From contig CAWFJP010000002.1 of the NCBI GenBank assembly GCA_963816145.1, positions 282,669 to 346,668 on the forward strand: 64,000 bases of DNA, in the 5' to 3' direction. A model generated the notes under the pieces. The model searched no databases. It saw only the letters and a program-made list of their open reading frames with translations, and was not told the DNA's origin. A program made the position numbers and the translations under genes. The DNA comes from an uncultured delta proteobacterium. GTDB taxonomy: Bacteria; Desulfobacterota; Binatia; UBA9968. Shown here in pieces: positions 944 to 60,952 of this stretch (positions are counted from its first letter, which is position 1; each line of letters starts with the position of its first letter).

Positions 944-1014
944 CGGTTAAGCGCATCACTGGGATGGAGAAGCGATTTGCCTACCGGAGGCGTGGATCAG
1001 GACAGGAGAGCGTA

Positions 1015-1992: not shown

Positions 1993-1996
1993 GCCC

Positions 1997-3727: not shown

Positions 3728-3764
3728 CAGGTAAATTTGCGCGGCTAAGTCCAGGGGAGGAGCT

Positions 3765-4880: not shown

Positions 4881-4897
4881 AAATTTTTTCTCTTTTA

Positions 4898-5164
4898 TGG
4901 TGCAGTCAGCAGGATCGTGCTCGGCTCAGGGAGATGTGCAAAGCTCACCAGGATAGCGAAGAGGTCTACGGAGCGACCAAGACATGGCGGGCGTTAAAAC
5001 AGTCCGGCACGTTGTGCGGCAAGCATCAAGTGGCGCGGCTGCGGCATCAGGCAGGGATCGAGCTGCGGCCCGAGCGCAAATTCAGACTGGCCTGCAAGGC
5101 TTGTAATACGGCGCCTGCCCGTCATTTTCTACGCCGGCCATTCATAGCGGATTATCCCGAGTAA
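4898..5164 (+). pseudogene. IS3-family transposase OrfB N-terminal remnant (no DDE core)
   Basis: Frame of ORF 4934..5164 reads ARLREMCKAHQDSEEVYGATKTWRALKQSGTLCGKHQVARLRHQAGIE...FLRRPFIADYPE. This matches the IS3 OrfB pattern (IH.ES...YG.RRI..EL...G..V.R.RV.RLMR..GL ... PN.L.R.F.A..PN). The ORF stops before any catalytic domain. Confidence 0.6.
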
Positions 5165-6706: not shown

Positions 6707-6787
6707 AAGATCTGGAGTTGACTTATAACCGGCCGATCCGCCGATGGCATTGTCCTGTTTGGAGCGTTATAAAGTTGTCGAGGAAAT

Positions 6788-7399
6788 TTGTCGTTGAAAG
6801 GTATCGGAAAAGCAAAGCAGCGCTGCGCGGCATGCGGATCCTCGCTGACACTGTGCATGTGTGCGGAATTGCCGTGGTTGGAGTTGCGCACGAAGGTCGC
6901 GCTGGTGATTCATCGTCACGAGCTGCTGCGCAGCAGCAACACCGGCATGCTCGCCGTCAGAGCGCTGGTCAATAGCGAGCTGCGCATTCGCGGCGCAAGC
7001 CGGGCAACGCTCGATTTGACCGACCTGTTATCGCCACACTATCGGTCGTTGCTGTACTATCCCAGTACGGATGCTGTCGAACTCACTCCAGAGCTAGTTG
7101 CGCAAGACCCGCGGCCGATTCAACTGATTGTCCCGGACGGCACCTGGCGCCAAGCGCGCAAGATTCATTCGCGTCAGCGCGAATTAAGAGACGTGCCGCG
7201 GGTGAAGATCAGCACGCCCAACGACTCAACCTTTCAGTTGCGCGCCCAGAGCCGGCCGGAGGGGATGGCGACGCTGCTCGCCATCGCCGCAGCCTTGGGT
7301 ATCATCGAAGGTGAAACGGTGGCGCTGCAGCTGATGCAGCTCTATCAGGCGCGGGTGGCGCGAACGCTCAGCGCCCGCGGCCTTCTAAGACCAAGTTAA
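6788..7399 (+). CDS. DTW domain-containing protein (tRNA-uridine aminocarboxypropyltransferase family)
   Basis: N-terminal Cys cluster CAACGSSLTLCMC and the DTW motif in LIVPDGTWRQARK. Start is TTG 6788 or TTG 6794 (AGGAAA upstream). Confidence 0.75.
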   Translation: MSLKGIGKAKQRCAACGSSLTLCMCAELPWLELRTKVALVIHRHELLRSSNTGMLAVRALVNSELRIRGASRATLDLTDLLSPHYRSLLYYPSTDAVELTPELVAQDPRPIQLIVPDGTWRQARKIHSRQRELRDVPRVKISTPNDSTFQLRAQSRPEGMATLLAIAAALGIIEGETVALQLMQLYQARVARTLSARGLLRPS

Positions 7400-7474
7400 A
7401 GATTAACCAGGCGCCAATACACGGGCGGACATTTTTAGTATTCAGGCTTCCGTGTGAAGCAGGGCTAGGAGATT

Positions 7475-7563
7475 ACACCGCCGAGGCGCGGAGAGCGCAG
7501 AGTAAAGATGGTTTGATTAAATAAAATGCTTCGAACTCTGCGAACTCTGTGCCTCTGTGGTGA
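7475..7563. repeat. palindromic intergenic repeat with tandem-word arms (CGCAGAG/CACAGAG word variant)
   Basis: Left arm CACCGCCGAGGCGCGGAGAGCGCAGAG and right arm CTCTGCGAACTCTGTGCCTCTGTGGTGA are imperfect reverse complements around an AT-rich core. Lies between convergent genes. Confidence 0.6.
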
Positions 7564-11960: not shown

Positions 11961-11992
11961 GGTTCAAGGTTCAAGGGTTCAAAAGTTCAAGG
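11961..11992. repeat. solo tandem-word arm, family B (GGTTCAAG x4)
   Basis: GGTTCAA GGTTCAA GGGTTCAA AAGTTCAA GG. Same word as both arms of 52383..52513. Confidence 0.6.
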
Positions 11993-12037
11993 TCGGATTC
12001 GGAACGGAAATTCATCGCGGAGATTCTAGCTGCTTCG

Positions 12038-32052: not shown

Positions 32053-33792
32053 ATGGGGCGGCTGTGGCAATATCTAAGGCGATACTCGAAGCGCTACTTG
32101 ATTGGTGGGGTATGCCTGCTCGGCACCGCGACCCTGGTCATGATGATTCCCTGGTGGACCCGGGCTGTGGTGCGCATCATCGAGCAGGGAGGGTCGCTTG
32201 GCGATGTGAGGTTTTACGCCTTGCTAATCATCGCTGCGGCGGTCTTGCAAGGTTTCGTGCGCACCTACTCGCGGGCGTTGATTTTCAACGCCGGCCGCGA
32301 TGTCGAATACGATCTGCGCAACGATCTGTTCTCGCACCTGGAAAAACTGCCGCTGGCTTTTTATCAAGCCAACCGTACCGGCGATCTGATGTCACGGGTG
32401 ATCAACGATATCTCCGCCGTGCGCGTCATGCTCGGCCCCGGCGTGCTCAATTTCGCCAACGCGCCGCTCTATTACGTCTATGCGGTCGTTCTCATGCTGT
32501 CGATGGATGTGCGCATGACTCTGGCGGCGTTGGCGCCTTTCCCCCTGCTCATGTTTGTCGCTCGGGTATTTCGCGGTCGGATCATGAAGAGTTCGCTCGA
32601 AGTGCAGCAGCAGATGTCGGTATTGAGCAGCCATGTGCAGGAAAACTTGAGCGGCATGCATGTGGTCAAAGCCTATTCCCAGGAAGAGTTTCAAACCCAG
32701 CAGTTCGTCGGCCTCAACAAAGACTACGAAGTCAAAAGCATGCAGATGGCCAAGATGCGCGGCATTGTCAATCCGGTGATGCAGGGAATTAACGGCCTCA
32801 CCGTGCTGATCGTCATCTGGTACGGCGGCGTGCGGGTCATGCGCGGCGATTTGTTGGTGGCGGATATCGTCGCGTTCATCGCCTATCTGAACGTTTTAGC
32901 CTGGCCGACCGCAGCCTTTGGCTGGATGCTATCGCTGGTCGAGCGCGGCCGGGCAGCGATGGGCCGGCTCGAGGAAATTCTCGAAACCGAGCCGGCCATC
33001 GCCAGCCCAGCGGCGCCGTTGCCCGTGCAAGGACTTAAAGACGGCATCGAATTTCGCAATGTCTCGTTCGCCTACAATAGCCAACGCAACGGTCACTCGG
33101 CTCTCAAAGGAATCAGCTTCAAACTCACAGTCGGCAAGTCGGTCGGATTGGTCGGCCGCATCGGTTCGGGCAAGAGCACGGTTGCTCAACTGGTGCCGCG
33201 GCTGTTTGACGTCAGCAGCGGCGAGATTCTCTTGGACGGCCGCAACCTCACCCAGCTGACGCTATCGGATCTGCGCCGGATGATGGGTTATGTGCCCCAG
33301 GACCCGTTTCTGTTTTCGAACACGCTACGCCGTAATATTGCCCTGGGCCGCGAAGAGTATAGCGAAGGAGAGCTTGACCGGGCGATCAAGATCGCCAAGC
33401 TTGACCGAGATTTGGAAATCTTTCCCAAAGGTTTGGAAACCATGGTCGGCGAGCGCGGCGTGACGCTATCCGGCGGGCAAAAACAGCGCGCGACGTTGGC
33501 GCGGGCACTGATCATGGACTCGCCGGTGTTAGTGCTGGACGACTGTTTGTCGAGCGTCGATGCTCAAACCGAGGCGGAGATTCTCGCTGGGCTAAGGCAC
33601 TTTCTCAAGGAAAAAACCTGCCTGATTATCTCGCACCGCATTTCGGCGGTGAAAGCGGCCGATGAGATTCTGGTTCTCGACGAAGGCGAGATCATCGAGC
33701 GCGGCGATCACGAAGCCCTGGTGCGCCGGGGCGGCGTCTATGCGGATCTCTACCAGCAGCAACGCTTGAGCGAGGAGCTCGAACAAATCTAA
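32053..33792 (+). CDS. ABC exporter, fused permease/ATPase (type I exporter half-transporter A)
   Basis: Six-TM N-domain. Walker A GRIGSGKST, signature LSGGQKQR, Walker B VLVLDDCLSSVD. Confidence 0.85.
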   Translation: MGRLWQYLRRYSKRYLIGGVCLLGTATLVMMIPWWTRAVVRIIEQGGSLGDVRFYALLIIAAAVLQGFVRTYSRALIFNAGRDVEYDLRNDLFSHLEKLPLAFYQANRTGDLMSRVINDISAVRVMLGPGVLNFANAPLYYVYAVVLMLSMDVRMTLAALAPFPLLMFVARVFRGRIMKSSLEVQQQMSVLSSHVQENLSGMHVVKAYSQEEFQTQQFVGLNKDYEVKSMQMAKMRGIVNPVMQGINGLTVLIVIWYGGVRVMRGDLLVADIVAFIAYLNVLAWPTAAFGWMLSLVERGRAAMGRLEEILETEPAIASPAAPLPVQGLKDGIEFRNVSFAYNSQRNGHSALKGISFKLTVGKSVGLVGRIGSGKSTVAQLVPRLFDVSSGEILLDGRNLTQLTLSDLRRMMGYVPQDPFLFSNTLRRNIALGREEYSEGELDRAIKIAKLDRDLEIFPKGLETMVGERGVTLSGGQKQRATLARALIMDSPVLVLDDCLSSVDAQTEAEILAGLRHFLKEKTCLIISHRISAVKAADEILVLDEGEIIERGDHEALVRRGGVYADLYQQQRLSEELEQI

Positions 33793-35606
33793 TGGCCCAG
33801 GCAGCGGAGCAAGAGGAAGTCCTCGGCAAAGCCTACGACCTGCGGCTGATCCAGCGCTTGTGGAAGTTCATTATTCCTTACAAGCGGTTGTTTTACTTCA
33901 CCATGCTGCTGTTGCCGCTGCAGCAAGCCTTCGGCGTGGCCCAGCCCTATTTAATGAAGATTGGTATCGACCGATACATCGCCGGCAAGGATCTTTGGGG
34001 TTTGAAGAATGTCATGCTGCTGTTCCTCGCCGCCCTGATCGGCGAGGCCGTGGCGGCGTTCGCGCACCAGTATTTCTCCATGCTGGTGGCGCAGCGCTGT
34101 TTGGCCGACATGCGGGCGGCGGTTTTTGCCCATGTGCAGAAACTGCCGATGAGTTATTTCGACCGCAATCCTGTGGGCCGATTGGTGACGCGCATGACGA
34201 CCGATGTCGACGTACTCCAGGAAATGTTTTCCTCAGGCGTGCTGACCCTGCTCTCCGATTTTATCATGGTGGTGTGGATCGTCAGCATCATGTTCTATCT
34301 GAATGTCGGCTTGGCCTTGGTGTCCTTGGCGTTGATCCCGCCGATGATGTTCGCCATCAACTTTTTCCGCGTCAAAGCGCGGCAGAACTACCGCCAGATC
34401 CGCGAGCGCATCGCCCGGGTGAACGCCTATCTGGGAGAGGCGATTTCCGGCATGACGGTGATCCATCTGTTTTCTCGCGAGGCGAAAACCTACCGCGAGT
34501 TCGAAGAACTCAACGCCGATCATCGCGACGCGTATCATCTGTCGAACACCTACGAGGCGGCACTCTATTCCATGGTCGAGGCCGCCGGATCGGTGAGCTT
34601 AGGGCTTTTGCTCTGGTACGGCGGCGGCGAGGTTTTGCACGGTATCATCGGCATCGGCACAGTGGTGGCTTTCAAGGAATACGTGAACCGGTTCTATGTG
34701 CCGATGCGCGATTTTAGCCAGAAGTACGCGGTCATGCAGTCGGCGATGGCGTCGGCGGAGCGGATTTTTCAACTGCTGGATACGCCGGTCGATATTCAAA
34801 ATATCCAAAACGCCCTGGTGCCCAAGCCGTTTCGCGGCGAAGTGGTTTTCGACAACGTCTGGTTCAACTACAAAGCCGGCGATCCGGTCTTGAAAGGCGT
34901 CTCGTTCCGCATTGCGCCGGGAGAGAAAGTCGCCGTCGTCGGCGCCACCGGCTCCGGCAAGACGACGACTATCAAGCTGCTCAACCGCTCCTACGATATT
35001 CAACAGGGTTCGATCAAAGTCAGCGGCGTCGACGTGCGCGAGTGGGATCTCCACGCGCTGCGCCGCCATATCGGCGTGGTGTTGCAGGATGTGTTTTTGT
35101 TTTCCGGCGATGTGCGCGGCAACTTGATCCTGGGCGATCCCACGGTTTCCCAAGAGCGCGTCGAACAAGCGGCGAAGCATGCCAATGCCGATCAATTTAT
35201 TCGCCAGTTGCCCGACGGCTACCTCTCCCAGGTGCGCGAACGAGGCAGCAACTTCTCGGCGGGGCAACGGCAACTCTTGTCGCTCGCGCGGGTGCTGGTG
35301 TTCCGGCCAGAAATATTGGTGATGGACGAGGCGACTTCTAGCGTCGACACCGAGACCGAAGCATTGATCCAAGATGCGCTGGAGAAAGTCATGCGCGACC
35401 GGACTTGTCTGTTGATCGCGCATCGGCTGTCGACGATCCGCAATGCTGACCGGATTATCGTGCTGCACCATGGCGAGGTGCGCGAGATGGGTTCCCACGC
35501 CGAGCTGATGGAACAGCGCGGCATCTATCACCGGCTGTACCAGCTGCAGTACGAGCGCGAGGAGTTAAAGCTCACCGGCCATGTCGAATCCAAGGTTGTT
35601 GCCTAG
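33792..35606 (+). CDS. ABC exporter, fused permease/ATPase (half-transporter B)
   Basis: Six-TM N-domain. Walker A GATGSGKTT, signature FSAGQRQL, Walker B ILVMDEATSSVD. Its start overlaps the stop of the preceding gene. Confidence 0.85.
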   Translation: MAQAAEQEEVLGKAYDLRLIQRLWKFIIPYKRLFYFTMLLLPLQQAFGVAQPYLMKIGIDRYIAGKDLWGLKNVMLLFLAALIGEAVAAFAHQYFSMLVAQRCLADMRAAVFAHVQKLPMSYFDRNPVGRLVTRMTTDVDVLQEMFSSGVLTLLSDFIMVVWIVSIMFYLNVGLALVSLALIPPMMFAINFFRVKARQNYRQIRERIARVNAYLGEAISGMTVIHLFSREAKTYREFEELNADHRDAYHLSNTYEAALYSMVEAAGSVSLGLLLWYGGGEVLHGIIGIGTVVAFKEYVNRFYVPMRDFSQKYAVMQSAMASAERIFQLLDTPVDIQNIQNALVPKPFRGEVVFDNVWFNYKAGDPVLKGVSFRIAPGEKVAVVGATGSGKTTTIKLLNRSYDIQQGSIKVSGVDVREWDLHALRRHIGVVLQDVFLFSGDVRGNLILGDPTVSQERVEQAAKHANADQFIRQLPDGYLSQVRERGSNFSAGQRQLLSLARVLVFRPEILVMDEATSSVDTETEALIQDALEKVMRDRTCLLIAHRLSTIRNADRIIVLHHGEVREMGSHAELMEQRGIYHRLYQLQYEREELKLTGHVESKVVA

Positions 35607-35700
35607 CAATCTCGTGCGCGCTGTCCTTGGGAGATCATTGCGGTTTGTTCGTCTAAATCGAGCGGCCTCTTTTCAGTCCATCCGAGTCGGAGTATTGGTA

Positions 35701-36723
35701 ATGACGCTCATGTCTTTGCTTTCCGCCTGTTCTCCGATCTACGTTCTGCGCGCCGCCTATGAAGAGGGAAAAATTCTCTGGCGCCGCCAACCGATCGCGG
35801 AATATATCCAGCAGCCGGATGTTAACGCCGAGACCCAGGAGAAGCTCAAAACCGTTCTGGCGGTGCGCGAGTATGCCCGCGATGTTCTCAAGCTCAACGT
35901 CGGCGGCAGCTATGGGAGCTACTCCTACGTCGATCGGCCGGACCTGACCTACGTTGTCGTCGCCGCGCCTAAGACCGAGCTGCGGCCTTACACCTGGTGG
36001 TTTCTGATCGTCGGCAGCGTGCCGTACAAGGGTTACTTCTCCAAGCAAGATGCTGAGGAAGAAATCGAACGTTTGAAGGCCGAAGGCTACGACACCAATC
36101 TGCGCACCTCGGCGGCGTTCAGCACTCTCGGCTGGTTCGACGATCCGTTGTTATCCCATCTGCTCAAGTACGACAAAGTCGGGCTTGCGGAAATTGTGTT
36201 TCACGAACTGTTTCACAACACGCTCTACATCAGCGGGCAAGGCGCTTTCAACGAAAGCGTCGCCAACTTCATCGGTCATCGAGCTGCGATTGAGTTTTTT
36301 CGCGTCAAATATGGCGCCGACAGCGCTGAACACAAGCGCGCGCTCGAGTGGTGGAGCGAAGAGCGGGAATTCGGAGCGTTTGTCGCGGAAGTCGTGCGCG
36401 ATTTGACTGAACTGTACAAGAGCGAGATCCCGCGCGCCGACAAACTGCGGCTGCGCGAGCTGGTTTTTAGCCGCAGCAAGGCCGAATGGGCGCGCCGCAT
36501 CGCCGAGCGGCCGACGCACCGCTTCCGCGGCTTCAGCCAACAGCCGTTCAACAATGCGGTACTGATGCACTACGCGGTTTACTTACAAGATTTGGACTTG
36601 TTCGAGTTGCTATATGACACCGCTGGACAGAAGCTGCCCAAAACCATTGAGCTATTGCAACAAGCCGTGGCGAACGGTGGCGATCCATTCGAGGCAGTGC
36701 GGCAATTAGTGAAGAATAATTAG
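35701..36723 (+). CDS. predicted lipoprotein aminopeptidase (COG4324/PF10023-like zinc peptidase)
   Basis: ATG 35701 gives lipobox MTLMSLLSAC. HELFHN zinc motif and downstream NESVANF. Confidence 0.65.
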   Translation: MTLMSLLSACSPIYVLRAAYEEGKILWRRQPIAEYIQQPDVNAETQEKLKTVLAVREYARDVLKLNVGGSYGSYSYVDRPDLTYVVVAAPKTELRPYTWWFLIVGSVPYKGYFSKQDAEEEIERLKAEGYDTNLRTSAAFSTLGWFDDPLLSHLLKYDKVGLAEIVFHELFHNTLYISGQGAFNESVANFIGHRAAIEFFRVKYGADSAEHKRALEWWSEEREFGAFVAEVVRDLTELYKSEIPRADKLRLRELVFSRSKAEWARRIAERPTHRFRGFSQQPFNNAVLMHYAVYLQDLDLFELLYDTAGQKLPKTIELLQQAVANGGDPFEAVRQLVKNN

Positions 36724-36774
36724 CCGCAGCGCTCCGATTGAGGTTAACCCGCGATCAAATGCGAAGATTATTAT

Positions 36775-36848
36775 TTACCACGAAGCGCGCGAGGGGTTAG
36801 GATAATTAAAATTCTGAACTTCGTGATCTTCGTGTCCTTCGCGGTGAG
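36775..36848. repeat. palindromic tandem-word repeat, family A (CACGAAG word)
   Basis: TTACCACGAAGCGCGCGAGG - TTAGGATAATTAAAATTCTGAA - CTTCGTGATCTTCGTGTCCTTCGCGGTGAG. Lies between convergent genes. Confidence 0.65.
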
Positions 36849-36871
36849 ATAGTATCTCCCTATGCGGCTGG

Positions 36872-37741
36872 TCAGCTTACCGCAGTTACTAAGGCAAATC
36901 GCCGGATCGCTTCGATATGCGCCGACGGCGACATCAGTCCCGACTTCATGGTGTTGAAGCTCACGTGGGTCGCGCCGAGATTTTTCCACGCTTCTAGATC
37001 TTTCTGCCAAGCGTCCGGTATGCCCTGGCCGTAGCTGATGCGACCTTCGATGCCGATGGATTGCGGCTCACGGCCTGCCGCCTTCGCATCATTGCGAATC
37101 TTGTCAATCATTGCCCGGCATTTTTCATCCGGTCCGACGAGCGGAAACCAGCCGTCGCCAGTACGCGCCAACCGGCCCAACGCGCGCTCATCGCTGCCGC
37201 CGAACCAGATCGGTATCGGCCTTTGCACGGGCAGGGGATTGATGCCGGCGTCGGTGATCTTATGCCACCGCCCTTCGAATGTTAGAGTCGGATGGGTCCA
37301 GAGTTGGCGCAAGACTTCGATCTGCTCTTCGGAGCGGCGGCCGCGATTTTTGAAATCTGCGCCGAGAGCTTCGTATTCCACCGGGTTCCAGCCTATGCCG
37401 ATGCCGAAGCGCAGCCGGCCGCCGCTCAAGACATCGAGCGCCGCGGCCTGTTTGGCGACCAAGACGGTTTGACGCTGGGGCAGAATGATGACGCCGGTGC
37501 AAAATTCGATTCGCCGGGTCACACCGGCGAGATAGCTGAATAAAACCACCGGCTCGTGGAACATGTCCAAGTGGCTATAGGGCGCGCGCCAGTTGGGCCG
37601 ACTCACCGGGTTGGCACCGATCACATGGTCGTAGGCCAGGATATGGGAAAAGCCCAACTCTTCGGCGGCCTGGCCGTAGTCCTTTATATAGTTTGGATCG
37701 GCGCCGATTTCGGTCTGCGGAAACACTACTCCGGCTTTCAT
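36872..37741 (-). CDS. LLM-class (luciferase-like) F420-dependent oxidoreductase
   Basis: ATG 37741 with GGAGGA upstream. MKAGVVFPQTEIGADP..GFSHILAYDHV..RIEFCTGVIILPQRQ is typical of the TIGR03619-type family. Confidence 0.78.
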   Translation of the reverse strand: MKAGVVFPQTEIGADPNYIKDYGQAAEELGFSHILAYDHVIGANPVSRPNWRAPYSHLDMFHEPVVLFSYLAGVTRRIEFCTGVIILPQRQTVLVAKQAAALDVLSGGRLRFGIGIGWNPVEYEALGADFKNRGRRSEEQIEVLRQLWTHPTLTFEGRWHKITDAGINPLPVQRPIPIWFGGSDERALGRLARTGDGWFPLVGPDEKCRAMIDKIRNDAKAAGREPQSIGIEGRISYGQGIPDAWQKDLEAWKNLGATHVSFNTMKSGLMSPSAHIEAIRRFALVTAVS

Positions 37742-37857
37742 GGAAAGTTCCTCCATTGGAAACTATTGAATACTCGGGCAATTCCGCTTTGTTTTGAAAC
37801 GACGGCCTTGAATTTCAGCTTGGCCATGCGCAGATTCTCCGTATGTAGAATTGTAAC

Positions 37858-37885
37858 TTGACTTAACCTAAGCGTTTCGTAGGAT
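37858..37885 (+). promoter_or_regulatory. sigma70-like promoter candidate upstream of htpX
   Basis: TTGACT (37858..37863), 16-nt spacer, TAGGAT (37880..37885), about 30 nt upstream of the htpX ATG. Confidence 0.3.
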
Positions 37886-37916
37886 ACTTTCTAGAAGCGG
37901 AATAGGAGTAAAAGCT

Positions 37917-38798
37917 ATGAACGGTTTGCGTACCACGATCCTGCTTGCGATGTTGACGGCGTTGGTCGTCTGGATCGGCCAGATGGTCGGCGGCCCCAAT
38001 GGCGCGATGATGGCGTTGATCTTCGCCGGCGCCATGAACTTCATCAGCTATTGGTTCAGCGATAAGATCGTTCTCAAGATGTACCGCGCGCAGGAGATAA
38101 CCGCCAACGATGACCCCGAGCTTTTCGGCATTGTCCAGGAGCTGGCCGGCCGGGGGGGCTTGCCGATGCCGAAGGTTTATATCATCCCCGAAGAAGCCCC
38201 CAACGCTTTTGCAACCGGGCGCAATCCCGAACATGCCGCTGTCGCGGTGACCCAAGGGATTCGCCGGATTCTCAATAAACGGGAACTCGCCGGTGTGCTT
38301 GGCCACGAACTCTCCCATGTGAAACATCGCGACATACTGATCAGCAGCATCGCCGCGACCCTCGCCGGCGCGATCAGTTATCTTGCCCAGATGGCGCAGT
38401 TCGCCGCGATATTTGGCGGCGGGCGGAGCCGCGACGATGAAGGCGGCGGTGGCGGTGTGTTCGGGCTTCTGTTCATGATGATCGTCGCGCCGATCGCCGC
38501 GATGTTGATTCAGATGGCGGTGTCGCGCTCGCGCGAGTATATGGCGGATGACGGCGGCGCGAAGTTATCCGGAGATCCACTGGCGTTGGCTAGCGCGCTG
38601 CGCAAGCTGCAGATGGGCGCGCAAAACATTCCGCTAGATGCCAGCCCGGCGACGCAAAACGCCACGGCGCATATGTTTATCGTCAGCCCGCTCAGCGGCA
38701 GCGGCTTCGCTTCGCTGTTCAGCACCCATCCGGCGATGGAAGAGCGCATCGCCCGGCTCGAAGCGATGGCAAAAGATATGAGTTACTTGAAAGCCTAA
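37917..38798 (+). CDS. htpX: zinc metalloprotease HtpX (M48 family)
   Basis: [10 protein letters not shown] HExxH motif, four TM segments, C-terminal [11 protein letters not shown]. Confidence 0.9.
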
Positions 38799-41326: not shown

Positions 41327-42082
41327 TCAAAGCGCTTGTGCCGCCGGCGCCGCCAAGTCCTGCTCGCGGGTGAGTTCCAAGAATGCGCTTTCGAGATTGC
41401 CGTTGTTGCCGTCCGTCTGGGCGTGGATCTCGCTCATGGTGCCGCAGGAGATCAAGCGGCCTTTGCGAATAATGCCGATGCGGTGGCAGATCTCCTCGGC
41501 GACGCTGATGCTGTGGGTCGAGAGAAACACCGTCGTGCCGTTCTTAGCCAATACGCCGAAGAGATCTTTGAGGGTGCGCGCCCCTTTGGGGTCCATGCCG
41601 ACCATCGGTTCGTCGATGACCAGGATCTTGGGCTCGTGAATCAAGGCGCCGCAAACCACCAGACGCTGCTTCATGCCGTGGGAATAACTTTCAACCAACT
41701 CATCCTTCCACGGCGTCAATTCCAGGTGATCGAGAAGTTCCGCGATGCGCTTGCGCAGCCGCGCCGGGTCGACCCGATGGAGTTTGCCGACGAAGGTTAA
41801 GAACTCGCTGCCGCTGAGTTTTTCATAGATAAACGGCCGGTCGGGAATGAAGCCGGAAATCGCTTTGGCCTTCTGAGCCGCGCCGACCACATCGTGGCCG
41901 TCAAGCAGAACTTGTCCCGAAGTCGCCTTCAGGATGCCCATCATGCAGCGGATCGTCGTCGTTTTGCCGGCGCCATTGGGGCCGAGAAAGCCGAAGATCT
42001 CGCCGGGCGCGACTTCGAGGTTTAAATTATCTACCGCGGCCAGTTTGCCGTAGTGCTTGGTAAGATTTTTGATTTGAATCAT
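41327..42082 (-). CDS. ABC transporter ATP-binding protein (ABC-2/DrrA-like)
   Basis: Walker A GPNGAGKTTT, signature YSHGMKQR, Walker B ILVIDEPMVGMD. Confidence 0.88.
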   Translation of the reverse strand: MIQIKNLTKHYGKLAAVDNLNLEVAPGEIFGFLGPNGAGKTTTIRCMMGILKATSGQVLLDGHDVVGAAQKAKAISGFIPDRPFIYEKLSGSEFLTFVGKLHRVDPARLRKRIAELLDHLELTPWKDELVESYSHGMKQRLVVCGALIHEPKILVIDEPMVGMDPKGARTLKDLFGVLAKNGTTVFLSTHSISVAEEICHRIGIIRKGRLISCGTMSEIHAQTDGNNGNLESAFLELTREQDLAAPAAQAL

Positions 42083-42085
42083 TAA

Positions 42086-42182
42086 ATTTTGGATTTTAGA
42101 TTTTCGTCTGCGGGGCCGCTTTTGGATTGCCGGATCGAGGCGAGGGCCAGTAATCCAAAATCCAAAATCGAAAATCCAAAAT
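42086..42182. repeat. long imperfect palindrome with tandem-word arms, family C (TTTTGGA word), intercistronic
   Basis: ATTTTGGATTTTAGATTTTCG ... CGAAAATCCAAAAT outer arms and TTTTGGATTGCCGG / CCAGTAATCCAAAA inner arms. Fills the gap between the transglutaminase-like stop and the ABC ATPase start. Confidence 0.7.
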
Positions 42183-44353: not shown

Positions 44354-44429
44354 TCCCCGGTAGCTCAGTTGGTAGAGCAGGTGACTGTTAATCACCGGGT
44401 CGGGGGTTCGAGTCCCTCCCGGGGAGCCA
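44354..44429 (+). tRNA. tRNA-Asn (anticodon GTT), CCA encoded
   Basis: Manual cloverleaf. Acceptor TCCCCGG/CCGGGGA, D-arm GCTC..GAGC, anticodon stem GGTGA/TCACC with loop CTGTTAA, T-arm GGGGG-TTCGAGT-CCCTC, discriminator G, CCA. Confidence 0.93.
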
Positions 44430-52382: not shown

Positions 52383-52513
52383 GGTTCAAGAGTTCAAGGT
52401 TCAAAGGTTCAAGGTTTTCGGATAAGAATTGGAAGTTGCGGAACCTAGAGCTTGGATTGGTACTCTGGCAGCGGGGCTTTGAGGTTGAACTTTTGAATCC
52501 TTGAACCTTGAAC
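52383..52513. repeat. long palindromic tandem-word repeat, family B (GGTTCAAG word)
   Basis: Left arm GGTTCAAGAGTTCAAGGTTCAAAGGTTCAAGG. Right arm GAGGTTGAACTTTTGAATCCTTGAACCTTGAAC. Core contains GGATAAGAATTGG. Confidence 0.7.
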
Positions 52514-53836: not shown

Positions 53837-54712
53837 ATGACGTCGGAAGCGACGGCGCAAATTCTCGCGCTCATCACCTCGGTCTTCTACGCTGCGGCGC
53901 TGGTGTCGGCGCGGGCGGGCATGCGCTACTCGACACCGACAACGGTGACCCTGGTCTCGATCCTGATGCAAAATTTGCTGCTGTGGACGGCGGTGTTCGT
54001 CACCGGCGGCGTTCATGCGGTGCCGCTGACGGGCATCTTGTTATTTACCCTGGTCGGGGTTTTTCAGTTGGGCGTGCGCCTGTTCGCCTACACCGGGGTC
54101 GAGAAGATCGGCGCTTCGCGCAGCAGCGCGCTGCAGTCGGTCAGTCCACTGTTCAGCGCAACCATCGCGATCTTGGTCCTCGGCGAGCAGACTTCGACGC
54201 TGATCGTTCTCGGCACCTTACTCGTGGTATTGGGTATCATTCTGGTGTCGTGGAAACCCGAGCGTGAGATCGCTAGTTTCCGTCGCTGGCATCTGCTGCT
54301 GCCCATCGGCGCGGCGTTTCTCACCGGCATGAACCACCCGATTCGCCGCTATGTTTTGACCATGGCCAACGAGCCGTTGTTTTTCTCCGCGCTTATGGGC
54401 TTGGTGTCGTTCGCTGGATTCTTAATTTATTTGGCAGTGTCGCCGCGCTCGCAGCGGCTGGTGTGGAATCGCCAGGCGCTAAGGCCGTTTCTCACCACCG
54501 GATTGTCCGAAACTTTTTCGATCTTATGCATCATTACCGCCATCAGTCTGGGCCGGGTCGTGATCGTCGCGCCGATCGCCGCGAGTTATCCGGTCTGGTC
54601 GCTGGTATTCGCGGCGCTGTTTTTGCGCGATGTCGAAGCGGTCAATTGGAAGGTGATCGTCGGCATTATCAGCGTGGTGGCGGGGAACTTTGCGATTCAT
54701 TTGGGCCGATGA
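53837..54712 (+). CDS. DMT-superfamily (EamA-like) transporter
   Basis: 291 aa with about 10 TM segments in two homologous halves. Confidence 0.72.
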   Translation: MTSEATAQILALITSVFYAAALVSARAGMRYSTPTTVTLVSILMQNLLLWTAVFVTGGVHAVPLTGILLFTLVGVFQLGVRLFAYTGVEKIGASRSSALQSVSPLFSATIAILVLGEQTSTLIVLGTLLVVLGIILVSWKPEREIASFRRWHLLLPIGAAFLTGMNHPIRRYVLTMANEPLFFSALMGLVSFAGFLIYLAVSPRSQRLVWNRQALRPFLTTGLSETFSILCIITAISLGRVVIVAPIAASYPVWSLVFAALFLRDVEAVNWKVIVGIISVVAGNFAIHLGR

Positions 54713-54733
54713 TCGACTATGAGAAGAACGGAG

Positions 54734-54811
54734 CTCACCACGAAGAGCGCGAAGGACACGAAGGTTTGGGATAATTGTTCTGAGCTTCGCGCTCTTCGCG
54801 TCCTTCGTGGT
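54734..54811. repeat. palindromic tandem-word repeat, family A (CACGAAG word)
   Basis: CTCACCACGAAG AGCGCGAAG GACACGAAG G - TTTGGGATAATTGTTCTGAG - CTTCGCGCT CTTCGCGTC CTTCGTGGT. Confidence 0.72.
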
Positions 54812-54884
54812 AAATTTATTTCTGGCAACTCGGACTTGTGACACATTCGTGGCTCGAATAGGATCGCTTGTGGGAGACGCTAAC

Positions 54885-55511
54885 ATGAAACTTTACGATA
54901 TCTCTTTGACCCTTTCGCCGGAGTCGATTCGTTGGGTGACGGCACAGCCGCTGGAGTTGATCGGGCGCAAGCGCATGAGCAAGGGCGACACCAACAACTC
55001 GTCATCGATTCACACCAGCGTCCATGCCGGCACTCACGTCGACGCGCCGTTCCACTTTTTGCCGGATGGGATCACCATTGAGGCTTTGCCCTTGGAGACT
55101 TTTATCGGCCCGGCGCGGGTGTGCGCCGCCGAACCCGGCACGCATATTACCGCCGCCGATGTCGCCAAGGCAAATCTCCAGGGCGAAGCCCGAGTGCTGT
55201 TCAAGACACGCAACTCGCAGCTCCTGAAGAAGGGGGTCTACGATGCCAGCTTTGCGCCTTTCTCCGTTGACGGCGCCAAGGCTCTGGTCGACCTCGGGGT
55301 AAAATTGGTCGGGCTCGATTACCTGTCCGCCGCCGGAGCAAGCGAACAGGTGCCGGTGCATCGCGCGTTCCTCGATCATGGCGTGATCTTGCTCGAAGGT
55401 GTCGACCTGTCCGAAGTGCCGCCGGGGCGCTACGAACTCTTCTGCCCGCCGGTGAAACTCGCCGGCTCCGATGGCGCGCCATGCCGGGCGGTGCTGCGGG
55501 AGCTGGCGTGA
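54885..55511 (+). CDS. cyclase-family protein (arylformamidase/kynurenine formamidase-like)
   Basis: ATG 54885. HTSVHAGTHVDAPFHF metal-binding motif and C-terminal ..LLEGVDL.. Confidence 0.78.
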   Translation: MKLYDISLTLSPESIRWVTAQPLELIGRKRMSKGDTNNSSSIHTSVHAGTHVDAPFHFLPDGITIEALPLETFIGPARVCAAEPGTHITAADVAKANLQGEARVLFKTRNSQLLKKGVYDASFAPFSVDGAKALVDLGVKLVGLDYLSAAGASEQVPVHRAFLDHGVILLEGVDLSEVPPGRYELFCPPVKLAGSDGAPCRAVLRELA

Positions 55512-55532
55512 ATGTCGCACATCGGATCTATT

Positions 55533-55614
55533 CACCACGAAGGACACGAAGTGCACGAAGGTCGGAGTTATAATTATCCGAACCCTTCGTGTCCTTCGTG
55601 CTCTTCGTGGTGAG
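55533..55614. repeat. palindromic tandem-word repeat, family A (CACGAAG word)
   Basis: TCACCACGAAG GACACGAAG TGCACGAAG G - TCGGAGTTATAATTATCCGAAC - CCTTCGTGTC CTTCGTGCT CTTCGTGGTGA. Confidence 0.72.
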
Positions 55615-55647
55615 ATCGACTTTTCCCTCAAGCTAGAAAAATAGGAC

Positions 55648-56505
55648 ATGATTCAATTCACACCTTCGATCATCGTTCATGGCGGTGCGGGGCCGATCAA
55701 AGACGACAGTCTGGCGGCGCGGCGTGAGGGCTGCAAGGCGGCGGCGCTGGCGGGGTGGGAGATTCTCTGCGCCGGCGGCAGCGCCGTCGATGGCGCCGAA
55801 GCCGCGGTGGCCGTCCTTGAGGATGATCCGCTGTTCAATGCCGGGACCGGTTCCACCCTCAACAGTTTGGGTCAAGTCGAGATGGATGCGGCGATCATGG
55901 AGGGCGCGACGCTGCGCGCCGGTGCTGTGGCAGCGGTCAAGGGTATCAAGAATCCCATTAAGCTGGCGCGCCGCGTGCTCGAAGATGGCCGGCATATCTT
56001 GATCGCCGGTGAAGGCGCCTCGCTGTTCGCCCGCGCTATAGAATTCCCGGAATGCGATCCCGCCGCGTTGATTGTCGAAAGCGAAAAACTGCGCTGGAAC
56101 AGCAAGCATGGGACTGTCGGCTGTGTCGCTTTCGATCAAGACGGCAGATTCGCCGCCGCGACTTCCACCGGCGGTATCTTCAACAAGCTTCCCGGCCGCG
56201 TCGGCGACTCGCCGCTGATCGGCTGCGGCACCTACGCGAATAAGTTCGGCGCGGTCTCATGCACGGGGTACGGTGAAGCGATCATTCGCGTCCTGATGGC
56301 GCGCGATGCCGTGCAGTTGCTCCAGGACGGCATCGAGCCCACCGAAGCCGCGGGCATGGTGTTAGATAATCTTAAAGATTTGACCGGTAGCACCGCCGGC
56401 TTGATTCTCGTCGACGCCCGCGGTCGGGTCGGCTTCGGGCGCAACACGACACATATGCCGGTGTGCTATGTCACCGTCGGCAGCGACCCGAAAACTGCTG
56501 TGTGA
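55648..56505 (+). CDS. isoaspartyl peptidase / L-asparaginase (Ntn hydrolase)
   Basis: IIVHGGAG, DPLFNAGTGS, autoprocessing site HGTVGCVA, and TSTGG. Confidence 0.85.
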   Translation: MIQFTPSIIVHGGAGPIKDDSLAARREGCKAAALAGWEILCAGGSAVDGAEAAVAVLEDDPLFNAGTGSTLNSLGQVEMDAAIMEGATLRAGAVAAVKGIKNPIKLARRVLEDGRHILIAGEGASLFARAIEFPECDPAALIVESEKLRWNSKHGTVGCVAFDQDGRFAAATSTGGIFNKLPGRVGDSPLIGCGTYANKFGAVSCTGYGEAIIRVLMARDAVQLLQDGIEPTEAAGMVLDNLKDLTGSTAGLILVDARGRVGFGRNTTHMPVCYVTVGSDPKTAV

Positions 56506-58987: not shown

Positions 58988-59579
58988 ATGTTGCGAATCA
59001 AGGGAGCATCGAAGGAAACCGCGCCGAAAGAAGTGCAAGAGGTCTTTGCGGCGCAGGAAAAACAATACGGCACGATCTTGAACACCGCGAAGGTCTACGG
59101 CCTTGCGCCCGACGATCCAGCAGGGTGTGCAGGCGCTCCAAGCCGGCATCGTGGCGTCGGGCTTGATCAGCCCGGAGTTGCGCCACTTGTTGTGCATGAA
59201 GGCCGCCAGTATCAACGGTTGTCCGTATTGACTGGACATCAACGCATCCAGTGGGATGCAACATGGTGCGTCGGCGGAAAAGGTTGAGGCTGCGTTGGGG
59301 GATTACAAAAAGAATCCGATCTTCTCCTTGCGGGAGAAGCTGGCGCTGGAGCTATGCGAGCGCATGACCTACACCAGCAAACGGGTCACTGACCGCTTTT
59401 TCAATCGGCTCAAGAAGCAATTCTCAGAGGAAGAACTCGTCGAACTGGCGGCGGTCATCGCGCTGGAGAATTTTCGCAGCAAGTTCAATCCGGTGTTCGC
59501 CGTCGAGGCGCATGGCTTTTGCCCGGTGCCTTTGGTCAAAGAAGTCGCCGCCGAAGCGGCGAGCAAGTTTCACGAATGA
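58988..59579 (+). CDS. AhpD-like carboxymuconolactone decarboxylase (CMD) family protein with in-frame TGA at the second Cys of CxxC (candidate Sec) and an apparent 1-nt frameshift near 59102..59108
   Basis: N-terminal frame (58988..) reads MLRIKGASKETAPKEVQEVFAAQEKQYGTILNTAKVYGL. After a 1-nt shift it reads RPTIQQGVQALQAGIVASGLISPELRHLLCMKAASINGCPY-[TGA 59229..59231]-LDINASSGMQHGASAEKVEAAL..., continuing into ORF 59256..59579. Confidence 0.55.
59244..59259 (+). promoter_or_regulatory. SECIS-like hairpin 12 nt downstream of TGA 59229
   Basis: GCATCC-AGTG-GGATGC is a perfect 6-bp stem with a GU-containing tetraloop. Its position resembles the minimal bacterial SECIS, about 11 nt after UGA. 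Confidence 0.4.
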
Positions 59580-59619
59580 GACAAGGTGCTTTGCCGCAAC
59601 CGAAGCTCGGAGTGTCTCC

Positions 59620-59690
59620 CGCAAAGGGAACGCAAAGGGCGCAAAGTTCGGGAGGAAAGGCTCACCACGAAGGACACGAAGCGCACGAAG
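59620..59690. repeat. composite tandem-word arrays: CGCAAAG x3 (59620..59646) then solo family A arm (59661..59690)
   Basis: CGCAAAGGGAA CGCAAAGGG CGCAAAG ... CTCACCACGAAG GACACGAAG CGCACGAAG. No inverted partner nearby. Confidence 0.6.
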
Positions 59691-59780
59691 TTAGAAACCA
59701 TGGCTATTGGAACCTTCATGACCTCCTTAGAAAATAGATGTGCAGGTATGATCCGGGCAGCGAATTGGCACGAGGTTTCC

Positions 59781-59847
59781 GTCATACCGGCGAAAGCCGG
59801 TATCCATCCCCCTCCCGCCCCTGGATGCCGGCTTTCGCCGGCATGAC
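59781..59847. repeat. double-hairpin intergenic repeat, family D (most compact copy)
   Basis: GTCATACCGGCGAAAGCCGGTATCCA - TCCCCCTCCCGCCCC - TGGATGCCGGCTTTCGCCGGCATGAC. Confidence 0.75.
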
Positions 59848-59975
59848 GAATCAAAGAAAAAACCATGGAGCGGTGGGATGGCTGCGATTTCATACTCTGT
59901 AGACGAGCGTAAGCTCATGAACGCTTTGTGGTGAGTCAAATGGTCTTAGTTAAACGCGAGAGGTTAGGCAGACTG

Positions 59976-60952
59976 ATGTTCGTACGAAATGTCATTCGCA
60001 ATACGTTGATTGTTCTGGGACTGTTGTTGCCGCTGCAAACGGCGCATGGCGCTTCCGCGCCGACCAAAGTCACGATTCACGTGCCGTCGAAGAGCTTGTC
60101 GATCATGCCGTACTACTTCGGCAAGGACAAAGGCTTCTTTGCCGCGGAGCAGATCGAGCCGCAGTTGATCATGATGGCGCCGCCGACGGCGATCGCGGCG
60201 ATGGTGGCGGGCGAGTTGGATTTTTCTTCGACCACCGGCGCGGCGACCTCGGCGATCATGCGCGGCTTGCCGATTCGAAGAATCTTTTACGTTCAGTCCG
60301 ATCCTGTTCATGTGCTACTCGCCCAGCCGGAGATCAAGTCAGTTCAGGATCTGGTCGGCAAAACGTCGGCGTCACCGCGCTGACCGACGCCGTGGGCATG
60401 TCGGCCAATGTGATCCTGCGCGCTCACGGGATCGAAGCCGGCAAGGTGACTCTGCTCGCGTGTGCAGGTCACGGATAATGCGATCAAGTCTCTCACCAGC
60501 AAACGCATCGCCGCGACTTGCTGGCGCCGCCCTATGTGGAGGAGCTGGAGGCAAAGGGATATGTGCATCTGGCAGATGCGCGGACTTATGCGCCGCTGAG
60601 CTTTATTGGATTGGTTACTTCGATCGAAACGATGAAAAAATCGCCGCAAAAAGTCCAAGGCATGATTGCCGCGCTGCATCGGACGATGAATTATATTCTC
60701 AATCCCGCTAACCGAAGGGAAGTCGTCGAGTATGTCTCGACCTACCATAAGCTCGATCTAGCGCTGGCCGAAAAGGCGATGGCTGCGCAGATGTTGGGTT
60801 ACAGCAAAGACGGCACCAAGCCGCGCGCCGCGGTGGAAAAGGAAATCGAGATTTACCGTGAGGCATTGAAGGTCGCGAAAGCGTTTACGCCGGACGATTT
60901 GGAAGACATGAGCTTTTTGCGCAAGGCGCAGGGAGCCGTGCAAGCGCGGTAG
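59976..60952 (+). pseudogene. NMT1/THI5-like ABC substrate-binding protein, disrupted by at least three frameshifts (about 60360, 60450-60475, 60505-60520)
   Basis: Frame 0 reads MFVRNVIRNTLIVLGLLLPLQTAHG...DLVGK. After a run of four A (60360..60363) the next frame reads NVGVTALTDAVGMSANVILRAHGIEAGKVTLL. A further shift gives RVQVTDNAIKSLTSKRIAA, then LLAPPYVEELEAKGY... continues to 60952. Confidence 0.65.

Follow-up and report, generated by a model that had tools for sequence, protein, structure and literature searches.

Several small repeat systems have been described that resemble parts of the elements reported here. Intervening sequences (IVS) of 23S rRNA, such as that of Coxiella burnetii (PMC4990558), are small selfish inserts with inverted flanks that form a long stem enclosing an optional mini-ORF of about 115–125 aa (S23p/four-helix-bundle). 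They are transcribed within a host transcript, are acquired horizontally, are common in ORF-less hairpin-only versions, and have been demonstrated to be excised by RNase III. Miniature inverted-repeat transposable elements (MITEs) are short, ORF-less and high-copy, share terminal inverted repeats with a gene-carrying parent, and show insertion polymorphism and nesting. REP/BIME and REPIN-RAYT systems are abundant extragenic palindromic repeats located after stop codons that potentially affect mRNA; their units are self-palindromes of 20–40 bp carrying a terminal GTAG or CGTC tag (PMC3733652). Short tandem word arrays, i.e., the cyanobacterial STRR heptamers, the LSSR of Mrazek et al. and the TAACTGA repeats of Beggiatoaceae (PMC4679880), consist of intergenic tandem words of 7–9 nt, and the same word is shared by distant phyla with no known transfer mechanism. 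Free-standing homing endonuclease genes are small nuclease-fold genes with a patchy cross-phylum distribution at high identity and many degenerate or empty sites.

A preliminary description of a 64,000-nt stretch of a Binatia genome (contig CAWFJP010000002.1; hereafter the window) listed palindromic repeats built from 9-bp words that bracket a single cyclase gene, with further copies elsewhere. All copies listed there were found at the places given, and the observation is thus confirmed. Four elements with CRCGAAG words and one CRCAGAG variant are present, together with a sister array. All are given on the forward strand:

54735–54811 (+), element 1: TC, left arm ACCACGAAG-AGCGCGAAG-GACACGAAG (54737–54763), core GTTTGGGATAATTGTTCTGAG (54764–54784) and right arm CTTCGCGCT-CTTCGCGTC-CTTCGTGGT (54785–54811), between the EamA stop (54712) and a promoter-like site upstream of the cyclase gene.
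55531–55614 (+), element 2: TTC, left arm ACCACGAAG-GACACGAAG-TGCACGAAG (55534–55560), palindromic core GTCGGAGTTATAATTATCCGAACC (55561–55584), right arm CTTCGTGTC-CTTCGTGCT-CTTCGTGGT (55585–55611) and GAG; member of a Binatia-wide subfamily with a conserved core.
36777–36848 (+), element 3: decayed left arm ACCACGAAG-CGCGCGAGG (36777–36794), core GGTTAGGATAATTAAAATTCTGAA (36795–36818), right arm CTTCGTGAT-CTTCGTGTC-CTTCGCGGT (36819–36845) and GAG, between convergent genes (aminopeptidase stop 36723; luciferase-like gene stop 36872).
59664–59730 (+), intact left arm ACCACGAAG-GACACGAAG-CGCACGAAG (59664–59690), a 22-nt core and a probable decayed right arm CCTTCATGA-CCTCCTTAG (59713–59730), the latter inferred from the sequence; described previously as a solo arm.
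59619–59646 (+), array of CGCAAAG words (CCGCAAAG-GGAACGCAAAG-GGCGCAAAG) followed by TTCGGGAGG, a sister word variant lying directly against the CACGAAG arm.
7476–7562 (+), CRCAGAG-word variant: left arm CACCGCCGAG-GCGCGGAG-AGCGCAGAG (7476–7502), AT-rich core and right arm CTCTGCGAA-CTCTGTGCC-TCTGTGGTG (7536–7562), between convergent genes.

The pattern CRCGAAGNNCRCGAAG gave 13 hits in the window against 0.33 expected in shuffled sequences, whereas the single word CRCGAAG was not enriched (46 against 39.6), so it is the arrays that are non-random. The arms of element 1 are 81% complementary and those of element 2 are 87% complementary over 30 nt. The elements were predicted to fold into hairpins of 27–35 bp: element 1 at −42.6 kcal/mol (z −6.2), element 2 at −53.6 kcal/mol (z −11.2), element 3 at −29 kcal/mol (z −3.7) and the 7476 variant at −47.4 kcal/mol (z −8.4). 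Every copy is intergenic and starts 22–82 nt after a stop codon (54712 to 54734, 55511 to 55533, 36723 to 36775, 7399 to 7475, and 59579, the end of a 107-aa ORF, to 59619/59661). Six independent assemblies of the same species carry the elements at the same sites, with C/T changes in the right arm of element 1, which shows that they are not an assembly artefact.

The interpretation offered in the preliminary description was only partly supported. A dispersed, strictly intergenic, palindromic family built from 9-nt words and located after stop codons was correctly recognized, and slippage does occur in such arrays, as seen from a 15-nt length variant of the neighbouring GTTCAAG array. The permuted word order is also real, but it concerns only the 2-nt prefix of each word (GA/AG against TC/CT), which in a hairpin produces G.U and A.C oppositions. 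This transition-type difference need not reflect recombination among words, as had been suggested, since the same is seen in gene-carrying cassettes (see below), where the spacers are only about 50% Watson-Crick. The view that the repeats are unlike MITEs was not supported either, as they have inverted arms, small size, no ORF, high copy number and presence/absence polymorphism, and share their arms with a gene-carrying parent.

We showed that the same arms, TTCACCACGAAG-NNCACGAAG-NNCACGAAG ... CTTCGTGNN-CTTCGTGNN-CTTCGTGGTGAA, directly abut the start and stop codons of 123-aa GxxExxY genes (loci retrieved for comparison are designated L followed by a number). In L050, the left arm is followed by TTG, 123 codons, TAA, two nucleotides (cc) and the right arm, and the ORF matched TIGR04256 (E 7e-45) and PF13366 (PD-(D/E)XK; E 2e-43). 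Of 80 metagenome loci chosen only by protein similarity, nearly all showed the arms. Among 65 non-redundant cassettes, 40 had same-type arms on both sides (34 CRCGAAG, 5 CATGAAG, and 1 CACAGAG) and none had mixed types, i.e., the rare word variants always change in both arms together. The word cores pair almost entirely Watson-Crick (37–41 of 41 cassettes at each core position of the outer two words), and the predicted fold of the cassette RNA has the arms closing the ORF (−187 kcal/mol, z −5.5). Distant homologues (44–56% identity) in Bacteroides, Bernardetia and Sphingomonas also have such arms and lie co-directionally between housekeeping genes. Cultured carriers include Bacteroides finegoldii (radA-GxxExxY), Sphingomonas parapaucimobilis YK209 (fabD-GxxExxY-fabG) and Herpetosiphon aurantiacus DSM 785, and Nostoc punctiforme for the four-helix-bundle version. 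CACAGAG arms with the same outer TTCACCAC...GTGGTGAA flank GxxExxY genes in L199, Bacteroides finegoldii and Bernardetia.

The complete cassette is about 450 bp. The left arm, (T)TCACCACGAAG followed by two or more NNCRCGAAG words, ends 0–1 nt before the start codon of the GxxExxY gene, and the stop codon is followed within 2–10 nt by the inverted arm CTTCGYGNN...CTTCGTGGTGA(A). Cassettes lie mostly co-directionally behind host genes, even inside operons, e.g., between fabD and fabG; the upstream gene was on the same strand in 35 cases and on the opposite strand in 11, as called with a crude ORF heuristic. The outer inverted word, (T)TCACCAC... / ...GTGGTGA(A), was also found in the window: TTCACCAC...GTGGTGAG in element 2, TCACCAC...GTGGTaaa in element 1, TTTACCAC...GCGGTGAG in element 3 and ACACCGCC...GTGGTGAA in the 7476 variant. 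The window elements likewise have at least two 9-nt CRCNRAG words in each arm, with the same word type in both arms. However, they contain no TIGR04256/PF13366 ORF: the cores are 21–24 nt, and no GxxExxY similarity was found anywhere in the window. The window copies are therefore ORF-less relatives of the cassette and not complete members. Since the search for the gene covered the 64-kb window and not the rest of the genome, a trans-acting source in this organism is not shown.

Two short copies elsewhere keep only the two ends of the ORF between the arms. The core of the genome locus L108 equals GxxExxY residues 2–20 plus 111–123, and one metagenome contig has the core ATGGAAT+CCAGCGTTTCTTTCTCTA... 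In addition, many contigs skip exactly the ORF, joining positions 185–191 to 544–570 of L170. For the window itself the indication is weak: a position weight matrix comparison with the ORF ends gave no significant similarity for the cores of elements 1 and 3, and element 2 and the Binatia consensus reached only p about 0.01–0.07. Thus, either a deleted cassette or an empty hairpin later invaded by the gene could account for these copies. According to the latter model, the word hairpin is itself the primary mobile or self-generating repeat, GxxExxY genes are secondary invaders of its loop, as homing-endonuclease genes invade their targets, and the window copies never carried an ORF. Besides the absence of ORF remnants in elements 1 and 3, this model is supported by the 100–1000-fold excess of ORF-less hairpins over ORFs, by very diverse cores, down to a few nucleotides such as TTTT or CACGAA, and by four-helix-bundle mini-genes found in arrays built from quite different words, as if arrays were general landing pads (no further such examples turned up in the retrieved loci). 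Against it are at least two short copies retaining both ORF ends, the arms abutting start and stop codons within 0–10 nt in most cassettes, which fits co-evolution as a single unit, and the outer word and word type, which are specific to GxxExxY cassettes across phyla. We consider the empty-site model unlikely, but the strongest of the alternatives.

In the wetland metagenomes that hold this Binatia organism, arms were 100–1000 times deeper than either flanking DNA or the ORF (arms 1000–5000, flanks 7–14, ORF interior 2–13). At element 2, unrelated metagenome contigs stopped matching at 55531 and 55615–55617, with a depth of 1000–1900 against 7–14 in the flanks. Arms were found in at least 119 genome stretches from many phyla, and family copies with the same core occur in other Binatia-type MAGs. 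GxxExxY proteins 85% identical to the query, which comes from a Desulfobacteraceae MAG, are labelled Lacimicrobium, Desantisbacteria and Bipolaricaulota.

Comparison of orthologous loci showed that L126, L127, L131, and L133 lack element 2, that L126 and L127 lack element 1, and that L129 and L131 carry other word variants at that site. A Binatia MAG syntenic at 70–76% nucleotide identity (L034) has a CACGAAG element in the same intergenic region as element 3. Nesting was seen in L099 and in the orthologous locus L128, where the CGCAAAG + TTCGGAG arrangement found at 59619–59646 is nested inside a CACGAAG element. The EamA-cyclase-asparaginase order is kept without the elements or with other variants, and the bracketing of the cyclase gene is therefore incidental. 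Gene-cassette boundaries of the integron attC type mobilizing the cyclase gene, to which two similar palindromes around a single gene might point, are thus very unlikely; no RYYYAAC/GTTRRRY core sites are present in the sequence, and other copies are scattered singly.

RNA contigs cover 54706–54857 and 55415–55678 and thus read through elements 1 and 2, although these are assembled contigs in which RNA ends cannot be mapped and which may include DNA carry-over. No U-tract follows the stems, and a terminator consensus scan flagged only a 5-bp sub-hairpin at 54796. The criteria for an intrinsic terminator were thus not fulfilled, and the elements are not strict terminators. A host function as terminators, mRNA 3′-end stabilizers or, conjecturally, protein-binding arrays selected in place, with words expanded by slippage, was considered. 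The position just after stop codons, the enrichment between convergent or tandem genes (13 convergent, 19 tandem, and 3 divergent for paired elements, called with the same crude heuristic), the very stable predicted hairpins and the conserved promoter-like site just downstream of element 1 are in agreement with this. However, the elements are absent or replaced at orthologous sites in close relatives, the same 27-mers occur across phyla together with a selfish-looking gene, and a bias toward 3′ ends is equally expected from selection against insertions in promoters. We regard this explanation as improbable.

A REP/BIME or REPIN family mobilized by a RAYT (Y1 transposase), which the preliminary description had proposed to look for, would fit the extragenic, palindromic, high-copy nature of the elements and their location after stop codons. 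It is nevertheless very unlikely, since each arm is a tandem array that is not self-complementary, the termini are TCACCAC without a GTAG or CGTC tag, and the associated gene is GxxExxY, located inside the element rather than flanked by REPs. No RAYT was seen in the window or in the flanks of about 4 kb on each side available from other genomes. An all-against-all comparison of neighbouring ORFs in about 110 loci found no recurrent protein family; GxxExxY was missed because the copies there are remnants or lie at contig ends.

Compared to MITEs, the parent with the same ends encodes no recognized transposase (no transposase-like function is known for PF13366, and the function of the family is listed as unknown; PMC3424549), and the arms are internally repetitive. 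The flanks of about 60 cassettes and elements showed no consistent direct repeat, in a comparison that included no precise empty/filled pair at high identity. Compared to 23S rRNA IVS, the elements lie in mRNA intergenic spacers behind stop codons and not in rRNA helices, the ORF is a PD-(D/E)XK (GxxExxY) protein, the arms consist of tandem 9-nt words with a conserved outer word, and RNase III excision is only inferred; the resemblance is one of mechanism only. Four-helix-bundle genes outside rRNA were, however, also found here between inverted tandem-word arrays. Compared to STRR/LSSR-type arrays, of which the retrieved loci are full, the present arrays come as inverted pairs with a defined outer word and are physically tied to a mini-gene. 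In contrast to homing endonucleases, no cleavage activity, target or homing has been shown for GxxExxY.

The positions D67, E77, and K79 are invariant in 34 GxxExxY homologues. An AlphaFold model of the protein was poor (pLDDT 52), and searches revealed no PDB sequence match, no PHROG match, no phage match and only a weak Cas4-like PADLOC hit. In Rfam, only tRNA-Asn matched in the window at the gathering score, and sub-threshold matches to eukaryotic miRNA hairpins were generic. Literature searches with the 16-mers and 9-mers found only chance primer matches, those on GxxExxY, PF13366 and TIGR04256 found no paper on the repeats, and those on S23p and four-helix-bundle protein found nothing on flanking arrays. 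DnaA boxes, parS, Chi sites, CsrA or Hfq sponges, Rho rut sites and type I restriction motifs were rejected for lack of any fit beyond a few bases.

Taken together, the window elements are most likely the ORF-less, non-autonomous form of a small selfish cassette, and we hold this view with fair confidence. The structure of the complete cassette is shown by the analysis, as are the window copies that keep the arms plus a 21–24-nt core, lie 22–52 nt behind stop codons, appear from the RNA contigs to be transcribed with their neighbours, and are variably present in related genomes, and the excess of such forms over ORF-bearing cassettes in the habitat by two to three orders of magnitude. The remainder is inferred. 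Short forms would arise by internal deletion of the ORF, which is shown for two copies elsewhere and only weakly indicated for the window cores, and would then spread in trans, like MITEs. In RNA, the 27–35-bp stem would be a substrate for RNase III-type processing, making insertions behind stop codons nearly harmless, as with 23S rRNA IVS. The purine-rich left arm places a GAAGGA word, Shine-Dalgarno-like by sequence, about 8 nt before the ATG of the intact gene. The DNA could be moved by nuclease-driven homing into empty hairpins or by transposition. For the host, the copies flanking the cyclase gene are most likely neutral passengers, with at most side effects on mRNA processing or stability.

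A wider reading, which we put forward only tentatively, is that tandem-word hairpins are the cis-acting shell of an undescribed class of mobile mini-cassettes, with a GxxExxY PD-(D/E)XK nuclease or, with other words, a four-helix-bundle S23p/Avd-like protein as cargo. Such cassettes would move between phyla, settle behind stop codons inside operons, be rendered harmless by excision of the stem at the RNA level, and leave behind ORF-less hairpins that are among the most abundant repeats in soil and wetland bacteria. This would also explain part of the long-puzzling STRR/LSSR word arrays.

Short intergenic word arrays have been catalogued for decades without a source or a vehicle for their cross-phylum distribution. 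Here, one such family is tied physically and by arm covariation to a specific mini-gene, GxxExxY, which is widely annotated but of unknown function, and this tie offers a possible vehicle for the cross-phylum spread. For annotation, this explains the HEGHEG/FVSFVV pseudo-ORFs obtained by translating through the repeats and shows that the bracketing of the cyclase gene should not be read as a cassette. The finding provides a testable origin for a repeat that reaches 100–1000-fold excess coverage in wetland metagenomes and breaks assemblies, a functional context for PF13366/TIGR04256 and possibly for free-standing four-helix-bundle S23p-like genes, and a candidate for generalizing the strategy of 23S IVS, i.e., to insert and then be cut out at the RNA level, to ordinary operons.

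The sequence was shown to contain the elements of the preliminary description, whose observation is confirmed. The following copies were found:
54735–54811, element 1, on one side of the cyclase-family gene
54885–55511, the cyclase-family gene (Pfam PF04199)
55531–55614, element 2, on the other side of the cyclase-family gene
36777–36848, a further copy (element 3)
59664–59690, a further copy
7476–7562, a variant built from CRCAGAG words

Elements 1 and 2 each have three 9-nt words NNCRCGAAG, an AT-rich core of 21–24 nt and the inverted words CTTCGYGNN. Two-word arrays occurred 13 times against 0.33 expected, whereas the single word was not enriched. All copies are intergenic and begin 22–82 nt after a stop codon. 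Folding elements 1, 2 and 3 and the CRCAGAG-word variant as RNA gave long hairpins of -42.6, -53.6, -29.0 and -47.4 kcal/mol, with z-scores of -6.2, -11.2, -3.7 and -8.4, respectively. Six independent assemblies of the same species carry elements 1 and 2 at the same sites with a few C/T differences, and they are therefore not an assembly artefact, a possibility that had been named in advance as grounds for rejection. The interpretation offered in the preliminary description was only partly supported, as shown below for the shuffled words and for the bracketing of the cyclase gene.

A MAG labelled Candidatus Binatia (locus L034) was found to be syntenic with window positions 33292–38770 at 70–76% nucleotide identity, and it contains a CACGAAG element in the same intergenic region as element 3. 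Copies with nearly the same arms and the same palindromic core as element 2 were present in other MAGs labelled Binatia or deltaproteobacteria (loci L048, L072, L075 with three copies, and L113). The family consensus is TTCACCACGAAGGACACGAAGAGCACGAAG-TTCGGAGTTTTAATNATCCGAAC-CCTTCGTGTCCTTCGTGCTCTTCGTGGTGA. Thus, the “permuted” order of the 2-nt word prefixes (GA, AG on the left against TC, CT on the right) is a family trait, which in a hairpin gives G.U and A.C oppositions. In the metagenomes that hold this organism, depth over element 2 was 1000–1900 against 7–14 in the flanks, and unrelated contigs stopped matching exactly at 55531 and at 55615–55617.

A scan of one genome per species for three consecutive CRCGAAG words returned at least 119 stretches, from Planctomycetota, Verrucomicrobiota, Acidobacteriota, Desulfobacterota, Chloroflexota (including the complete genome of Herpetosiphon aurantiacus DSM 785), Gammaproteobacteria, Cyanobacteria, Nitrospirota and others. 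Outside the searched pattern, the outer word was almost always (T)NACCACGAAG ... CTTCGTGGT(GA), and many loci had an inverted partner 20–150 nt away. Cores differed between lineages. Other word variants (CACAGAG, CACGGAG, CGCAAAG, CACTAAG) and many unrelated 7–9-nt word arrays occurred in the same loci. In Herpetosiphon spp. (L021, L029, L040, L069, L117), CTTCGTG arms were found as direct tandem blocks just upstream of promoter-like sites, embedded among many other heptamer arrays (AAGGCAG, ATGTTCT, GGATGAG, GGCTATG). Nested composites were also observed: in locus L099 (about 6720–7000) CGCAGAG-word arms enclose CGCGAAG-word arms, and in L128 (3140–3420), a locus orthologous to the cyclase region, CACGAAG arms enclose a CGCAAAG element. 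Elements appear to insert into one another.

Other word families were detected within the window. A second family (GGTTCAAG, period 7–8) shows the same inverted-array architecture around a 76-nt core (52383–52416 and 52493–52513). It is conserved at the orthologous site in the cyclase-region loci L126–L128 and shows a 15-nt length variant and alternative cores in metagenome X14. A solo array of this family at 11961–11993 directly follows a perfect 28-nt hairpin, GCCGTGATCGCGGTTCCGCGATCACGGC. A third family (ATTTTGG/CCAAAAT heptamers) occurs as an inverted pair between two minus-strand genes (42063–42104 and 42152–42182), for which no cargo gene was identified. At 59780–59848, a 27-nt inverted repeat, CGTCATACCGGCGAAAGCCGGTATCCA / TGGATGCCGGCTTTCGCCGGCATGACG (93% complementary), gives the VIPAKAGIH/IPAFAGMT pseudo-peptides, and a related sequence is located upstream of the cyclase gene in L128. 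The 667-nt depth bin around this repeat (59342–60008), which also holds the CACGAAG arm at 59664–59690, reached about 355x against about 7x in X14, so part of that excess may come from this separate, very abundant REP-like family.

In several of the arm-selected loci, the core was found to contain a recognizable gene or a piece of one. In one of these, L050, the left arm ends 1 nt before a TTG start codon, a 123-codon ORF follows, and the right arm begins 2 nt after the TAA stop. The ORF matched TIGR04256 “GxxExxY protein” (E 7e-45) and Pfam PF13366 PDDEXK_3 (E 2e-43). To remove the bias of having searched for arms, we retrieved 80 metagenome loci by protein similarity only. Nearly all of them showed the left arm abutting the ATG and the right arm 2–10 nt after the stop. 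Among 65 non-redundant cassettes with enough flank, 40 had arms of the same word type on both sides (34 CRCGAAG, 5 CATGAAG/CTTCATG and 1 CACAGAG/CTCTGTG), and none was mixed. This is covariation between two arms separated by about 370 nt. In a subgroup of the metagenome GxxExxY loci (L169, L171, L180, L185, L192, L209), the stop codon is followed by a second left-type (direct) ACCACGAAG arm instead of the inverted arm, which suggests tandem or nested units. In 41 cassettes aligned from the outer word, nearly every word-core position of the outer two words paired Watson-Crick (37–41 of 41), whereas the 2-nt spacers paired in only about half of the cases, the rest being G.U (53 cells) or A.C (38 cells). 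The shuffled words, taken in the preliminary description to suggest slippage or recombination among words or a protein-binding array, are therefore a normal property of the parent cassette. The cassette RNA is predicted to close the ORF with the arm stem.

More distant GxxExxY genes (44–56% identity) in cultured bacteria showed the same architecture. In Bacteroides finegoldii the arms are TTCACCACAGAG...CTCTGTGGTGAA, Bernardetia has CACAGAG words, and Sphingomonas has a CGCGAAG left arm. In these three annotated genomes the gene is located co-directionally between housekeeping genes, in Sphingomonas between fabD and fabG. A crude ORF analysis placed the upstream gene on the same strand in 35 cassettes and on the opposite strand in 11.

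A profile search of the arm-selected genome loci showed one intact gene, one gene cut by a contig end, and three remnants. In L108, one of these loci, the core encodes GxxExxY residues 2–20 joined to residues 111–123. Besides, one wetland contig has the core ATGGAAT+CCAGCGTTTCTTTCTCTA..., again the two ORF ends. When a complete cassette was compared with four wetland and soil metagenomes, the arms had a depth of 200–5000 and the ORF interior a depth of 2–13, and many contigs joined position 185–191 directly to 544–570, with only a few to 40 nt in between. Short forms therefore outnumber gene-carrying forms by two to three orders of magnitude, although ORFs below 80% identity are not counted in this comparison. 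For the window copies themselves, similarity of the cores to the ORF ends was weak (p about 0.01–0.07) for element 2 and the Binatia consensus, and none was found for elements 1 and 3. Their origin by deletion is therefore inferred rather than shown.

Orthologous loci with 87–90% identical cyclase proteins (L126–L133) were found to keep the EamA-cyclase-asparaginase order, except for L133, but to differ at the two spacers. L126 and L127 have neither element, and their cyclase-asparaginase spacer is only 39 nt. L131 and L133 have 10–11-nt spacers downstream. L128 has the nested composite of CACGAAG arms and a CGCAAAG element. L129 and L130 carry an ACCACAAAG-word element at the site of element 1, and L131 carries an ACCACAGAG solo arm there. 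The elements come and go while the gene stays, so the bracketing of the cyclase gene that had been pointed out in the preliminary description is incidental. A promoter-like TTGTNA-17 nt-TANGAT motif upstream of the cyclase gene (in the window TTGTGA-17 nt-TAGGAT, 54836–54864) is conserved in all of these loci, even where the upstream gene differs, and is located downstream of element 1.

Soil metatranscriptome contigs covered 54706–54857 (all of element 1) and 55415–55678 (end of the cyclase gene, element 2 and the start of the asparaginase gene), and one RNA contig continued from a left arm into a GxxExxY reading frame. No U-tract follows the stems. On the evidence of these assembled contigs, which do not resolve RNA ends, the elements are transcribed with their neighbors and are not strict terminators.

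GxxExxY homologues 85% identical to the query were labelled Lacimicrobium (Gammaproteobacteria), Desantisbacteria and Bipolaricaulota, whereas the query itself comes from a Desulfobacteraceae MAG. This indicates recent transfer between phyla. D67, E77 and K79 were invariant in 34 sequences, as expected for an active PD-(D/E)XK site, although this activity is inferred from sequence alone. The function of the family is listed as unknown, with “multiple transfers” noted (PMC3424549). Sequence searches returned no solved structure and no phage copy, and only 8 plasmid or chromid copies were found; the predicted structure was too poor to use.

A parallel was found in locus L084 (3630–4083), where a four-helix-bundle gene (TIGR02436, the S23p family of 23S rRNA intervening sequences, E 2.5e-32) lies between inverted arrays of the heptamer AATTCGT. 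The same was shown, each with a different heptamer, in Nostoc punctiforme (GTCGGAG), Euhalothece (ACTGGTC) and Bernardetia (TAGTGAT), and both flanks of the Treponema and Anabaena genes also carry tandem-word arrays. These loci include L218, L220, L221 and L222 (Nostoc punctiforme, Euhalothece, Bernardetia, Treponema plasmids). This may link cyanobacterial STRR-type arrays to mini-gene cassettes. The published 23S IVS of Coxiella is a 428-nt selfish element with an S23p ORF that is cut out of the precursor by RNase III (PMC4990558), and it represents the closest known mechanism. It suggests, but does not show, that the arm stems of GxxExxY cassettes and of their ORF-less copies are processed in the same way. 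The arrangement of arms and gene and the covariation between the two arms were observed directly in the sequences, whereas nuclease activity of the protein and processing of the stems, like the deletion origin of the window copies, are inferences.

The elements are not REPs, as there is no tagged self-palindromic unit, and they are neither attC sites nor canonical terminators. They matched no Rfam family; the only Rfam or ARAGORN hit in the window was a tRNA-Asn (GTT) at 44354–44429, which is unrelated to the elements. A link between these arrays and GxxExxY genes was not found described in the searchable literature, although this does not prove that no description exists. The elements fulfill the descriptive criteria of MITEs, except that the flanks of about 60 cassettes and elements showed no consistent target duplication and that the partner with the same ends, the GxxExxY cassette, encodes no known transposase. 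We regard them as ORF-less relatives of a GxxExxY hairpin cassette, a variant of the MITE/IVS kind.
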